Assembly: GCF_044324875.1 (NCBI RefSeq)
Contig: NZ_CP172185.1
Reading direction: 5' to 3' (one strand)
DNA from: Escherichia coli
GTDB lineage: Bacteria > Pseudomonadota > Gammaproteobacteria > Enterobacterales > Enterobacteriaceae
DNA length: 64,000 bases
Part shown: positions 1,312 to 6,469 of the stretch, in pieces
Layout of the letters: the number at the start of each line of letters is the position of its first letter
Position numbering within the stretch: the first letter of the stretch is position 1
Position numbers and translations under genes: made by a program
Notes under the pieces: generated by a model
Databases searched by the model: none
What the model saw: only the letters and a program-made list of their open reading frames with translations
What the model was told of the DNA's origin: nothing

Positions 1312-1931
1312 GGCACGGGCTGCTGGCGCTGATTTGCTGGCTGTGTTGTGTTGTTGCCCATAGCGAAATGCTGAATGTCGAACAGTCGGGGCTGTTTCGC
1401 GCGTGGTTTGTACGCATTGCACAGGAACAACTCCGCCAGGGGCCAAGCCCACGCTGGTATCAGCAGGATTGTGCGGGCCTGGTGCGATTTTCGGCGAACG
1501 AGGCGCTGAAAATTCACGACAGCAAATGGCTAAAAAGTAACGGTATAGCAAGTCAGTATTTGCCGCCTGAAATGACGCTAACACCTGAACAGCGTCAACT
1601 GGCGCAAAACTGGAATCAGGGGAACGGGAAAACCGGCCCCTACGTGACCGCGATTAATTTGATTCAGTACAACAGCCAGTTTATTGGCCAGGACATAAAC
1701 CAGGCGCTGCCTGGCGATATGATTTTTTTCGATCAGGGCGATGCCCAGCACTTAATGGTCTGGATGGGGCGTTACGTCATCTACCACACCGGAAGCGCCA
1801 CGAAAACTGACAACGGAATGCGCGCAGTCAGTCTGCAACAACTTATGACATGGAAGGACACCCGATGGATACCCAACGATTCCAATCCCAATTTCATTGG
1901 CATTTATCGTTTAAATTTTCTGGCGCGATAG
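1308..1931 (+). CDS. yfaT: YfaT-like exported protein (DUF1175 family)
   Basis: ORF-track frame 1281..1931; start placed at ATG 1308 ([20 protein letters not shown], signal-peptide-like), giving 207 aa; ATGA overlap with yfaA stop. Confidence 0.8.
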
Positions 1932-4900
1932 CAGCGTGCTTGTCCCTGTCTCTTGTGGGAACAGGGCTTGCTAATGCTGATGATTCGCTTCCTTCCAGCA
2001 ACTATGCGCCGCCCGCCGGGGGAACATTCTTTTTGCTCGCTGACAGCAGTTTTAGCAGCAGTGAAGAGGCGAAAGTGCGACTGGAAGCGCCGGGGCGTGA
2101 TTATCGGCGCTATCAGATGGAAGAGTACGGCGGTGTGGACGTTCGTCTGTATCGTATTCCTGACCCGATGGCATTTTTGCGCCAGCAGAAAAACCTGCAT
2201 CGCATTGTGGTGCAACCGCAATATCTGGGCGACGGGCTGAACAATACGCTGACCTGGCTGTGGGATAACTGGTACGGCAAATCTCGCCGCGTGATGCAGC
2301 GTACTTTCTCTTCTCAGTCACGGCAGAATGTGACTCAGGCATTACCCGAATTACATCTCGGCAATGCCATTATTAAACCTTCCCGTTATGTACAGAACAA
2401 CCAGTTTTCCCCGCTGAAAAAATATCCACTGGTGGAACAGTTCCGTTACCCATTATGGCAGGCTAAACCGGTCGAGCCGCAGCAAGGGGTAAAACTGGAA
2501 GGCGCATCCAGCAATTTCATCTCGCCGCAGCCGGGCAACATCTATATTCCTCTCGGCAAACAAGAGCCGGGACTGTACCTCGTCGAGGCGATGGTTGGTG
2601 GGTATCGGGCGACGACGGTGGTGTTTGTTTCCGATACCGTGGCGCTTAGCAAAGTGTCAGGTAACGAGCTTCTGGTGTGGACCGCGGGTAAAAAACAGGG
2701 TGAAGCGAAGCCGGGATCAGAGATCTTGTGGACTGACGGTCTTGGCGTGATGACCCGCGGTGTGACCGATGACAGCGGTACCTTGCAGTTACAACATATA
2801 TCGCCGGAACGTTCATACATTCTGGGTAAAGATGCTGAAGGCGGCGTTTTTGTCTCCGAGAATTTTTTCTACGAAAGCGAAATCTACAACACCCGCTTGT
2901 ATATCTTTACCGACCGCCCTCTGTATCGTGCAGGCGATCGTGTTGATGTCAAAGTGATGGGCCGCGAGTTCCACGACCCGTTGCATTCATCCCCCATCGT
3001 CAGCGCCCCGGCGAAGCTTTCAGTGCTGGACGCCAACGGCAGTCTGTTGCAAACCATCAATGTCACGCTGGATACGCGTAATGGCGGGCAGGGGAGTTTC
3101 CGCCTGCCAGAAAATGCCGTCGCCGGAGGTTATGAGTTACGCCTGGCTTACCGCAAACAGGTCTATAGCAGCAGTTTTCGCGTGGCAAACTACATCAAGC
3201 CACATTTCGAGATTGGTTTAGCTCTCGACAAAAAAGAGTTCAAAACTGGCGAAGCGGTCAGCGGCAAACTGCAACTGCTCTACCCGGATGGCGAGCCGGT
3301 AAAAGATGCCCGCGTGCAGTTAAGTTTGCGCGCTCAGCAATTATCAATGGTCGGTAACGATTTGCGTTATGCCGGACGTTTCCCCGTGTCGCTGGAAGGC
3401 AGTGAAACGGTGTCCGACGATAGCGGTCATGTGGCGTTAAATCTCCCCGCCGCCGATAAACCGAGCCGCTATTTGTTAACCGTCTCCGCCAGTGACGGCG
3501 CGGCGTATCGCGTCACCACCACCAAAGAGATCCTCATTGAACGCGGCATGGCGCATTACTCTTTAAGTACCGCCGCACAATACAGTAATAGCGGCGAGTC
3601 GGTTGTGTTCCGTTATGCCGCGCTGGAATCTTCAAAACAGGTTCCTGTTAAGTATGAGTGGCTACGCCTGGAAGACCGAACAAGCTACAGCGGAGATCTA
3701 CCGTCTGGCGGTAAATCCTTCACCGTTAATTTCGATAAACCAGGTAACTACAATCTGACGTTACGCGATAAAGACGGCTTAATTCTCGCCGGGTTAAGTC
3801 ATGCGGTCAGTGGTAAGGGCAGCATGGCGCATGCCGGTACGGTAGATATTGTGGCAGATAAAACGCTGTACCAGCCTGGCGAAACCGCGAAGATGCTGAT
3901 TACCTTCCCGGAGCCAATTGATGAAGCATTATTGACGCTGGAACGCGATCGCGTTGAACAGCAGTCGCTGCTATCGCATCCGGCAAACTGGCTGACGTTA
4001 CAACGTTTAAACGATACCCAGTATGAAGCCCGCGTACCGGTGAGCAATTCCTTTGCGCCTAACATCACTTTTTCGGTGCTGTATACCCGTAACGGTCAGT
4101 ACAGTTTTCAGAACGCCGGGATCAAAGTTGCCGTTCCCCAGCTGGATATCCGGGTGAAAACGGACAAAACCCATTACCAGCCTGGTGAACTGGTCAATGT
4201 CGAATTAACCTCGTCGCTGAAAGGTAAACCTGTTTCTGCGCAGCTAACGGTTGGCGTGGTCGATGAAATGATCTATGCGCTGCAACCGGAAATCGCGCCG
4301 AATATCGGCAAATTTTTCTATCCGCTGGGGCGTAACAATGTGCGTACCAGCTCCAGTCTGTCGTTTATCAGCTACGACCAGGCGCTCTCCAGCGAGCCGG
4401 TTGCGCCAGGCGCGACTAACCGCAGCGAGCGGCGAGTAAAAATGCTTGAACGTCCACGGCGTGAAGAGGTGGATACCGCGGCATGGATGCCGTCACTCAC
4501 AACCGATAAACAAGGCAAAGCGTATTTCACGTTCCTGATGCCTGATTCGTTAACCCGCTGGCGCATTACCGCGCGTGGGATGAGCGGCGACGGGTTGGTC
4601 GGGCAGGGGAGTGCTTATCTGCGTTCGGAAAAAAATCTCTACATGAAGTGGAGTATGCCAACGGTGTATCGCATGGGCGACAAACCGGCAGCAGGACTGT
4701 TTATCTTCAGTCAGCAGGATAACGAACCGGTGGCGCTGGTGACTAAATTTGCAGGCGCTGAGATGCGCCAGACGCTGACGCTGCACAAAGGGGCGAATTA
4801 TATTTCGCTGACGCAGAACATTCAGCAATCTGGCTTGTTAAGCGCAGAACTGCAACAAAATGGGCAAGTGCAGGACAGCATTAGCACAAAACTGTCTTTT

Positions 4901-6469
4901 GTGGATAACAGCTGGCCCGTTGAACAGCAGAAAAATGTCATGCTCGCCGGTGGCGATAACGCGCTGATGTTGCCCGAGCAGGCGAGCAATATCCGGCTAC
5001 AAAGTAGTGAAACGCCGCAGGAGATTTTCCGTAACAATCTTGATGCGTTAGTCGATGAACCGTGGGGTGGCGTGATCAACACCGGTAGCCGTCTGATCCC
5101 GCTCAGTCTCGCCTGGCGTTCGCTTGCCGATCATCAAAGTGCCGCCGCTAACGACATTCGTCAGATGATTCAGGATAACCGTCTGCGGCTGATGCAACTG
5201 GCGGGGCCCGGTGCGCGCTTTACCTGGTGGGGGGAAGATGGCAATGGCGACGCCTTCCTGACGGCATGGGCATGGTACGCCGACTGGCAGGCCAGCCAGG
5301 CGCTCGGCGTAACGCAACAACCAGAATACTGGCAGCATATGCTCGACAGCTACGCGGAGCAGGCAGATAACATGCCGTTATTGCATCGGGCGCTGGTGCT
5401 GGCGTGGGCGCAGGAGATGAATCTGCCGTGCAAAACGTTGTTGAAAGGGTTGGATGAAGCTATCGCCCGGCGCGGAACTAAAACTGAAGATTTCTCTGAG
5501 GAAGACACCAGCGATATCAATGGCAGCCTGATCCTCGATACGCCGGAATCTCCACTGGCAGACGCGGTGGCAAACGTCTTAACCATGACGTTGCTGAAAA
5601 AAGCGCAGTTGAAGTCCACGGTGATGCCACAGGTTCAGCAATATGGGTGGGATAAAGCGGCAAACAGCAATCAGCCGCTGGCGCACACGGTTGTGCTGCT
5701 TAATAGCGGTGGCGACGCTACCCAGGCGGTCGCTATTTTAAGTGGTTTGACCGCTGAGCAATCCACTATTGAACGCGCGCTGGCCATGAACTGGCTGGCG
5801 AAATATATGGCGACAATACCTCCGGTTGTGTTGCCTGCGCCTGCGGGCGCATGGGCTAAACATAAGTTAACTGGAGGGGGCGAATACTGGCGTTGGGTTG
5901 GTCAGGGCGTGCCGGACATTCTCTCTTTTGGTGACGAATTATCGCCGCAAAATGTGCAGGTCCACTGGCGTGAACCGGCAAAAACGGCTCAACAAAGTAA
6001 CATTCCGGTGACCGTTGAACGCCAGTTGTATCGGCTTATCCCTGGTGAAGAAGAGATGAGCTTTACTCTGCAACCGGTGACCAGCAATGAGATTGACAGC
6101 GATGCGCTGTATCTCGATGAAATCACGCTTACCAGCGAGCAGGATGCCGTTCTGCGCTACGGTCAGGTGGAAGTACCGCTCCCGCCGGGAGTCGATGTTG
6201 AGCGCACAACATGGGGCATTTCGATCAATAAACCCAACGCCGCGAAACAGCAGGGGCAATTGCTGGAAAAAGCGCGAAATGAAATGGGCGAACTGGCCTA
6301 TATGGTGCCGGTGAAAGAACTGACGGGAACGGTCACTTTCCGCCATTTGCTGCGCTTCTCGCAAAAAGGGCAATTCGTTCTGCCTCCTGCTCGTTATGTG
6401 CGTTCCTATGCACCTGCACAGCAAAGTGTTGCGGCAGGGAGTGAATGGACCGGGATGCAGGTGAAATAA
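1850..6469 (+). CDS. yfaS: Alpha-2-macroglobulin family protein YfaS, intact full-length, no CxEQ thioester motif
   Basis: Uninterrupted 1539-aa ORF; N-terminal hydrophobic signal (…[21 protein letters not shown]); large size and position typical of bacterial A2M; start uncertain (ATG 1850 or 1865), either overlaps the yfaT 3' end. Confidence 0.85.

Follow-up and report, generated by a model that had tools for sequence, protein, structure and literature searches.

Degenerate thioester site of the alpha-2-macroglobulin family protein YfaS in the yfa operon of Escherichia coli

Escherichia coli is a textbook example of a bacterium with both forms of alpha-2-macroglobulin (A2M), of which YfaS is the thioester-less one. 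The yfaS locus raises the question of what occupies the place of the missing thioester, and what such a protein can still bind. We addressed this question with the copy of yfaS contained in a 64,000-nucleotide stretch of E. coli DNA (the window).

The yfaS gene and its operon

The open reading frame from 1850 to 6469 consists of 1539 codons plus a stop codon without interruption, and is an intact E. coli copy of yfaS (Table 1). The length of 1539 residues given in the first-pass annotation is that of the maximal frame, whereas the protein itself is probably 1534 residues long. Its putative start is the ATG at 1865 (M6), which agrees with the K-12 start and is preceded by GGAAGGA at 1853-1859. 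Four Pfam matches, all above their curated cutoffs (MG2, 90.7 bits; A2M_BRD, 66.6 bits; A2M, 48.4 bits; bMG10, 27.4 bits), place YfaS in the alpha-2-macroglobulin/C3 superfamily by its MG, bait-region and A2M domains. Pfam returned no thioester domain (TED) or thiol-ester match in YfaS; this result was not counted as a loss because the thioester-bearing relative P0125 also lacks such a match. No NCBIfam model was found for YfaS, YfaT, YfaQ or ECAM (YfhM), while YfaA matched PRK11410 with 691 bits and is named yfaA in the annotation of the closest genome.

The N-terminus contains RQxQF..LS followed by a hydrophobic stretch, a feature common to family members, and the predicted Sec signal peptide would be cleaved between ANA and DD. 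The sequence IAAC at C30 was considered as a lipobox, which is unlikely as the hydrophobic core runs on past the Cys and this putative cleavage site comes after it.

The gene order is yfaA-yfaT-yfaS-yfaQ-yfaP, with the same synteny in 80 of the 80 related genomes examined. The coordinates of yfaT, which shares 67 nt with the start of yfaS, are those of the PGAP annotation of GMF054 mapped onto the window; the NlpC/P60 match of its product (E 5e-4) falls under the curated Pfam cutoff. YfaS is thus accompanied by DUF2138, DUF1175, DUF2300 and DUF2135 genes, as in mag-type operons. According to the annotation, the E. coli operon has five genes, with gyrA upstream in place of a magA counterpart. 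The neighbors yfaT and yfaQ, instead of pbpC, and the lack of a lipobox Cys set YfaS apart from Type I A2Ms; in K-12, yfhM-pbpC sits elsewhere on the chromosome.

Table 1. Features of the yfa operon and of yfaS in the window (residue numbers are those of the translation)
Feature	Position	Strand	Evidence
yfaA (DUF2138; MagB counterpart), 5' end cut by window edge	1..1311	+	Pfam DUF2138 E 3e-213, profile positions 138-560
yfaT (DUF1175, weak NlpC/P60 similarity; MagC counterpart)	1308..1931	+	Pfam DUF1175 E 4e-58
yfaS, intact alpha-2-macroglobulin family gene	1865..6469 (maximal ORF from 1850)	+	ORF, Pfam, presence across E. coli, dN/dS
Predicted Sec signal peptide, includes C30, predicted cleavage before DD	1865..1978	+	Read from sequence
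Bait region, residues 846-862	4385..4435	+	Family variability; NRSER shared with MagD; translation checked
S954: Asn in 100 % of CxEQ-bearing members and ECAM, Ser in 6/6 thioester-less Enterobacterales	4709..4711	+	Column statistics
Predicted thioester-like domain (TED), all-helical toroid, residues ~1056-1319	5015..5806	+	AlphaFold, Foldseek, hhalign
Degenerate thioester site E1070-P-W-G-G1074-V-I1076-N1077, homologous to ECAM Y1183-P-Y-G-C1187-L-E-Q1190	5057..5080	+	BLASTP, MAFFT, hhalign, codons checked
C-terminal MG10/CTMG domain	5852..6466	+	Pfam bMG10; beta domain in model
S1519-Y1520, homologous to ECAM M1634-Y1635 pocket pair	6404-6409	+	hhalign, translation checked
yfaQ (tandem DUF2300, SpoIID-like stretch; MagE counterpart)	6470..8119	+	Pfam DUF2300 E 8e-91, SpoIID E 7e-6; annotation
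yfaP (DUF2135; MagF counterpart)	8124..8900	+	Pfam DUF2135 E 2e-18; annotation

The thioester site, its pocket and the surrounding domains

The first-pass annotation had reported that YfaS lacks a C-x-E-Q motif and that none of its EQ dipeptides follows an appropriately placed Cys. A regular-expression scan of the translation gave the same result: C.EQ was absent, as were C..Q and C.E, and the EQ dipeptides were exactly the seven listed (VEQF 196, VEQQ 703 and 1025, PEQA 1043, AEQA 1170, AEQS 1303 and SEQD 1430). The only two Cys residues are C30, within the predicted signal peptide, and C1194. Because just 0.007 C.EQ motifs are expected by chance in a protein of this composition, absence of the motif is meaningful only at the homologous site. 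A phmmer search of PDB sequences with full-length YfaS gave only weak C5 and CD109 matches and found neither ECAM nor SaA2M. As this sequence signal was too weak, the site was located by means of family alignments, hhalign and a structural model.

BLASTP, a MAFFT family alignment and hhalign to ECAM all aligned C1187-L-E-Q1190 of ECAM with G1074-V-I-N1077 of YfaS, and the profile-profile comparison of the two families gave 98.8 % with an E-value of 1.2e-16. The Cys, Glu and Gln are replaced by G1074, I1076 and N1077, respectively; ECAM contains PYGCLEQTAS and the family consensus is PYGCVEQTASR, such that GCVEQT has become GGVINT. The profile alignment to ECAM that had been proposed as a check therefore confirmed the thioester-domain region and identified G1074 as the canonical Cys position, and alignment through the site to the sequence named MagD by NCBI revealed Gly in both proteins. 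Since the canonical Cys is Gly, the sequence indicates that an internal beta-cysteinyl-gamma-glutamyl thioester cannot form in YfaS, and the protein is predicted to be incapable of trapping proteases covalently.

The ECAM thioester is shielded by a hydrophobic pocket composed of two TED Tyr residues (Y1183 and Y1185) and a CTMG Met-Tyr pair (M1634-Y1635) (Fyfe 2015). On the basis of hhalign and family columns, two of these four residues are lost in YfaS (Y1183 to E1070 and M1634 to S1519) and two positions are kept (Y1185 to W1072 and Y1635 to Y1520), leaving YfaS without the intact pocket of thioester-containing A2Ms. Met is 96 % conserved in the 1519 column among CxEQ-bearing members, and hhalign pairs ARYVRSYAP of YfaS with QPMVESMYVP of ECAM. 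The equivalence of S954 to an ECAM Asn is also supported by hhalign.

An AlphaFold model of residues 940-1539 (pLDDT 86.4, pTM 0.84), with helices at construct positions 117-380, predicted a native-like MG9-TED-MG10 arrangement. The best Foldseek matches in the PDB were native ECAM and Salmonella A2M (ECAM 4ziu, E 1.2e-21; SaA2M 4u48; ECAM 5a42), and C5, CD109 and TEP1 were also matched. Like the alignments, this confident model puts ECAM C1187-L-E-Q1190 at G1074-V-I-N1077 of YfaS. The model and alignments together indicate an alpha-helical TED with MG9/CUB on one side and the C-terminal MG domain on the other. YfaS belongs to the same superfamily as the Type I proteins ECAM (E. coli) and Sa-A2M (Salmonella) and has their C-terminal MG9, TED and MG10 in the model (Foldseek E 1e-21). 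ECAM and YfaS also have MG2, bait-region and A2M domains in common, and both would be periplasmic, given the predicted export of YfaS. However, their identity is merely 15-17 % in the C-terminal half, YfaS has neither the LAGC lipobox nor the GCLEQT thioester of ECAM, and the operon partners are yfaATQP for YfaS and pbpC for ECAM.

Few 15-residue windows in the family vary as much as the YfaS bait (entropy 3.0 versus a mean of 2.0), which lies between the conserved flanks SLSF.SYD and ER..K.LERPRR. The NRSER sequence within it matches the mapped MagD bait, ANRSERG 847-853.

Repeated loss of the thioester within the family

MagD (PA4489), the Type II A2M of the Pseudomonas aeruginosa magABCDEF operon, is a member of the same family, and YfaS clusters inside the MagD-clade family on a neighbor-joining (NJ) tree. 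Pseudomonas orthologues are 52-55 % identical to YfaS over residues 1 to ~1527, and the operon order (DUF2138-DUF1175-A2M-DUF2300-DUF2135) is the same except that magA has no counterpart in the five-gene E. coli operon. The two proteins share a predicted signal peptide without a lipobox, the NRSER bait core and replacement of the canonical Cys by Gly. Family similarity, synteny and this replacement uphold the earlier assignment of YfaS to the MagD-like thioester-less class. MagD and YfaS differ in that MagD (YPYGGVEQT) lost the Cys alone and kept the Y, E and Q, whereas YfaS (EPWGGVINT) lost the pocket Tyr and Met as well; in addition, mature YfaS retains one Cys.

This class is not uniform. 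GCVEQT is kept in 30 of the 41 full-length cluster representatives of the yfa/mag-operon family and at 14 syntenic loci (no contig location was found for P0131). From this distribution we conclude that the family is ancestrally thioester-bearing and that YfaS is a secondary loss within it. The NJ tree implied at least ~12 losses of the Cys, with G, S, T, D or N in its place. On this tree the enterobacterial and MagD losses occurred separately, as both have sister lineages that carry CVEQ; the enterobacterial loss appears to be independent of that of MagD, and more eroded. The closest relatives of YfaS outside Enterobacterales (50-55 % identity) are thioester-bearing members encoded in the same operon, for example those of P. 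citronellolis, P. viridiflava and Methylobacter oryzae and the metagenomic P0125. Unlike YfaS, these proteins retain GCVEQT, N954, Y1070 and M1519, from which we predict that they can capture proteases covalently. Type II bacterial A2Ms are defined in the literature by the absence of CxEQ. This absence holds for YfaS but fails family-wide, and the rule that Type II proteins lack a thioester is an over-generalization.

Constraint on YfaS and its probable function

Among 5426 complete E. coli genomes, yfaS was found at 95-99 % identity in 5383, and in 5362 the match extended over 80 % or more of the query. The dN/dS ratio was 0.066 relative to E. albertii (0.11 in the TED) and 0.09 relative to Superficieibacter, with a range of 0.11-0.19 for the TED over the comparisons. 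Enterobacterales proteins with identities of 52-90 % conserve the replacement motif GGV(I/V)NT. A direct codon comparison with K-12 identified 138 nt and 37 amino acid differences, including the nonsense codon W1373* that makes yfaS a pseudogene in MG1655. The MG-domain body, bait loop, helical TED and MG10 of YfaS are all kept under purifying selection.

The first-pass annotation had asked what YfaS actually binds, and a partial published answer exists for MagD, which traps the protease non-covalently once its bait is cut and is complexed with MagA/B/F (Zouhir 2018). MagD contains no Cys at all and does not respond to methylamine; trapping was demonstrated solely for an engineered TEV bait that was cleaved incompletely. 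We consider it probable that YfaS is a Sec-exported periplasmic Type II A2M with a decayed thioester that most likely cages proteases non-covalently, as MagD does. An ancestor with a working thioester (GCVEQT) would have undergone Cys to Gly replacement in the enterobacterial lineage, followed by Glu to Ile/Val and Gln to Asn, with two of the four shielding pocket residues replaced. A complex with MagB-like YfaA and MagF-like YfaP would keep YfaS at the inner membrane. A protease entering the periplasm would cut the bait, and the cleaved YfaS would change conformation and cage the protease without a covalent bond. Against this mechanism, MG1655 carrying W1373* grows normally, yfaS being dispensable in the laboratory, and the magA counterpart is missing. 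Moreover, the YfaS site is more eroded than the YPYGGVEQ of MagD, and hence MagD biochemistry may not transfer fully.

Alternatively, the TED could have been repurposed such that the complex binds a non-protease ligand, e.g. peptidoglycan or a cell-wall enzyme, together with NlpC/P60-like YfaT and SpoIID-like YfaQ. The weak NlpC/P60 match, the SpoIID match, the link of Type I A2Ms to the peptidoglycan enzyme PBP1c, and conservation of the altered site under purifying selection are consistent with this idea. It is nevertheless unlikely: the bait loop is kept and hypervariable, as expected of a protease substrate mimic, MagD traps protease once its bait is cleaved, and thioester-bearing members occupy the same operon, which shows the partner genes to be independent of thioester loss. 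That YfaS is a decaying relic, inactivated by loss of the thioester and drifting toward a pseudogene, is highly improbable. Although the MG1655 allele and erosion of five of the seven thioester-related positions point in this direction, the near-complete gene coverage in E. coli, the low dN/dS ratios, the conserved replacement motif and retention of the whole five-gene operon argue against it. A non-canonical reactive bond is scarcely credible: C1194 remains in the TED and N1077 occupies the Gln position, but C1194 is 120 residues away from this site and is not conserved, as the family consensus of its column is Val (LPVxTL), a Cys-Gln thioester requires the spacing C-x-E-Q, the residues that provide shielding in ECAM, Y1183 and M1634, are replaced, and MagD, without any Cys, shows no methylamine response.

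With non-covalent caging as the preferred reading, a broader proposition is possible, though we put it forward only tentatively. The Cys may have been lost repeatedly and independently (~12 times on the NJ tree) under strong purifying selection throughout, with operon partners making covalent capture dispensable. The enterobacterial clade that includes YfaS would then be the most advanced case, its pocket (Y1070E, M1519S, N954S, E1076I, Q1077N) having been remodeled to form a new, conserved surface that has a function of its own.

Thioester loss in E. coli YfaS and Pseudomonas MagD has already been known since 2004-2018. The present analysis makes a modest addition: a map, residue by residue, of the changes at the thioester and its pocket, evidence that YfaS remains under strong constraint without a thioester, and a warning against equating Type II with thioester-less. 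Natural pairs of orthologues with and without the thioester in the same operon, for example in Pseudomonas species, would provide a clean system for determining the contribution of the covalent bond to bacterial protease trapping.

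Replacement of the thioester residues

A regular-expression scan of the YfaS translation bore out the first-pass annotation, which had reported that the canonical thioester motif (C-x-E-Q) is absent, and returned the same seven EQ dipeptides. The only cysteines in the protein are C30 and C1194 (numbering of the 1539-aa maximal reading frame). As just 0.007 occurrences of the motif are expected by chance in a protein of this composition, its absence is uninformative unless the homologous site is located. BLASTP against ECAM (YfhM, the thioester-bearing Type I alpha-2-macroglobulin, or A2M, of E. 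coli; sequence from K-12) paired PYGCLEQTAS of ECAM with the YfaS site in a weak alignment. With the C-terminal 600 residues of YfaS as query, 220 relatives were recovered from 1.84 billion cluster representatives, and their alignment contained an unambiguous site column, with YPYGCVEQTASRLIP as the consensus and YPYGCLEQTASGLFP in ECAM, versus the YfaS segment. The same pairing was obtained by profile-profile alignment of the C-terminal halves of the YfaS and ECAM families, a check that had been proposed with the original claim (98.8 % probability, E 1.2e-16, 549 columns). An AlphaFold model of residues 940-1539 (pLDDT 86.4, pTM 0.84) showed a helical toroid (1056-1319) flanked by two beta domains, the second of them C-terminal. 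Its best PDB matches were native ECAM (4ziu, E 1.2e-21), Salmonella A2M (4u48) and ECAM 5a42, with TM-scores of 0.55-0.57 against native A2M forms versus 0.32-0.33 against protease-activated forms. As BLASTP, the family alignment, the profile alignment and the model matches agree, we conclude that the thioester Cys, Glu and Gln are replaced by G1074, I1076 and N1077, respectively; the codons were verified.

In bacterial A2Ms the thioester is shielded by a pocket formed in ECAM by Y1183 and Y1185 of the thioester domain (TED) and M1634 and Y1635 of the C-terminal macroglobulin domain (Fyfe et al. 2015). The corresponding YfaS residues are E1070, W1072, S1519 and Y1520, such that two of the four pocket residues are lost. 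Position 954 shows perfect co-variation with the thioester: Asn is present in ECAM and in all 45 C-x-E-Q-bearing family sequences, whereas all six thioester-less Enterobacterales have Ser, as do 67 % of the thioester-less sequences from elsewhere in the family.

The yfaS gene and its chromosomal setting

The reading frame is open throughout (1539 codons plus stop), and its product matched the Pfam domains MG2, A2M_BRD, A2M and bMG10. The 1539-aa translation of the first-pass annotation exists as an open frame, with its likely start moved to ATG 1865, a K-12/UniProt-like start that is also that of K-12 yfaS. From this codon yfaS overlaps yfaT by 67 nt; the overlap with the upstream gene is only 4 nt in P0125, a metagenomic, thioester-bearing homologue. 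Because family members share an N-terminal RQxQF..LS-hydrophobic pattern, the PGAP start in strain GMF054, the closest genome, which would delete the signal peptide, is probably wrong. Several relatives (P0131, P0149, P0168 and P0178) carry a twin-arginine-like stretch before the hydrophobic core, e.g. QFYRRLS or FRRRFSARLL, and the E. coli N-terminus lacks RR; this hints that family members may differ in whether they use Tat or Sec.

Features of the yfa region and its surroundings
Feature	Position	Strand	Remarks
yfaA			DUF2138; truncated at window edge
yfaT	1308-1931		DUF1175; weak NlpC/P60 similarity (E 5e-4, below cutoff)
yfaS	1850-6469	+	maximal frame from ATG 1850
SD-like GGAAGGA	1853-1859		upstream of ATG 1865
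ATG 1865 (M6)	1865	+	candidate start; product 1534 aa
GTG 1955	1955		candidate start; PGAP, GMF054
S954 codon	4709-4711		outside TED; not among published pocket residues
Codon 1373	5966-5968		TGG
yfaQ	6470-8119		DUF2300; SpoIID-like stretch (E 7e-6)
yfaP			DUF2135; yfaS neighbour
ato genes		opposite to yfa genes	neighbours of yfa operon
Collinearity break	19319-19344		small; BLAST alignment to GMF054 splits
eco	~31000-31500		placed by collinearity with GMF054 locus L086 (17086-17574)

The region is unremarkable chromosomal E. coli sequence, collinear with GMF054 (~99 %) and K-12 (97.5 %), and 5383 of the 5426 complete E. coli genomes searched carry yfaS. The small break lies near the rcsC/rcsB junction according to the GMF054 annotation. 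The gene is intact here; the annotated pseudogene of K-12 MG1655 owes that status solely to a TGG to TGA change (W1373*), which truncates MG10. The dN/dS of yfaS was 0.066 against E. albertii (0.11 in the TED) and 0.09 against Superficieibacter. Cell-wall-enzyme-like signatures in YfaT and YfaQ echo the linkage of Type I A2Ms with PBP1c. Another periplasmic protease inhibitor, ecotin, is encoded ~25 kb downstream of the operon, a proximity that is probably coincidental.

Thioester loss across the family

C-x-E-Q is kept in 30 of 41 full-length representatives. A locus scan in which each species was represented by a single genome yielded 80 loci, all in the order yfaA-T-A2M-Q-P, and GCVEQT was kept in 13, including P. 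citronellolis, P. panipatensis, P. indica, P. viridiflava and Methylobacter (14 syntenic loci with P0125 added). Cys alone has been lost in MagD, the Type II A2M of P. aeruginosa, in Aeromonas cavernicola and in most of the remaining Pseudomonas, which all read GGVEQT. The Enterobacterales read GGV(I/V)NT, GGAINT or GNIERS. In an ECAM-rooted neighbour-joining tree without support values, Cys was the ancestral state with at least 12 changes, an approximate count; the enterobacterial clade was monophyletic, with CVEQ-bearing sisters, and distinct from the Pseudomonas losses. Independently of the tree, several loss events are argued by the variety of Cys replacements (G, S, T, D and N).

The closest relatives of E. 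coli YfaS are from E. albertii (90 %) and Superficieibacter (74 %), followed by Edaphovirga and many Pseudomonas (~55 %); Citrobacter youngae (52 %) and Serratia microhaemolytica (50 %) rank only after these. This order and the patchy occurrence of yfaS across Enterobacterales suggest that the operon moved by horizontal transfer. In Pseudomonas loci L045, L066, L073 and L080 the region upstream of yfaA (DUF2138) holds a second YfaP-like gene (~41 % identity to YfaP), presumably magA, a magF paralogue; E. coli has gyrA in its place and hence a five-gene operon.

Relationship to MagD

MagD is thioester-less and unresponsive to methylamine, associates with the inner membrane via MagB, and traps a protease non-covalently after bait cleavage (Robert-Genthon 2013; Zouhir 2018). 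Given the literature on these A2Ms, thioester loss in YfaS is already known and not a new finding. Position 846-860, the YfaS bait, is among the most variable stretches, with conserved residues on both flanks, and contains NRSER, the core of the mapped MagD bait ANRSERG. By analogy with MagD, from which every step beyond sequence, fold, synteny and selection is drawn, YfaS would be exported via Sec and would join YfaA and YfaP in an assembly at the inner membrane; an invading protease cutting the bait would then be caged without a covalent bond. Our results support the proposed placement of YfaS in a MagD-like, thioester-less class, with that class defined by operon and ancestry rather than by uniform thioester absence; the history of the family departs from a simple thioester-less-class reading.
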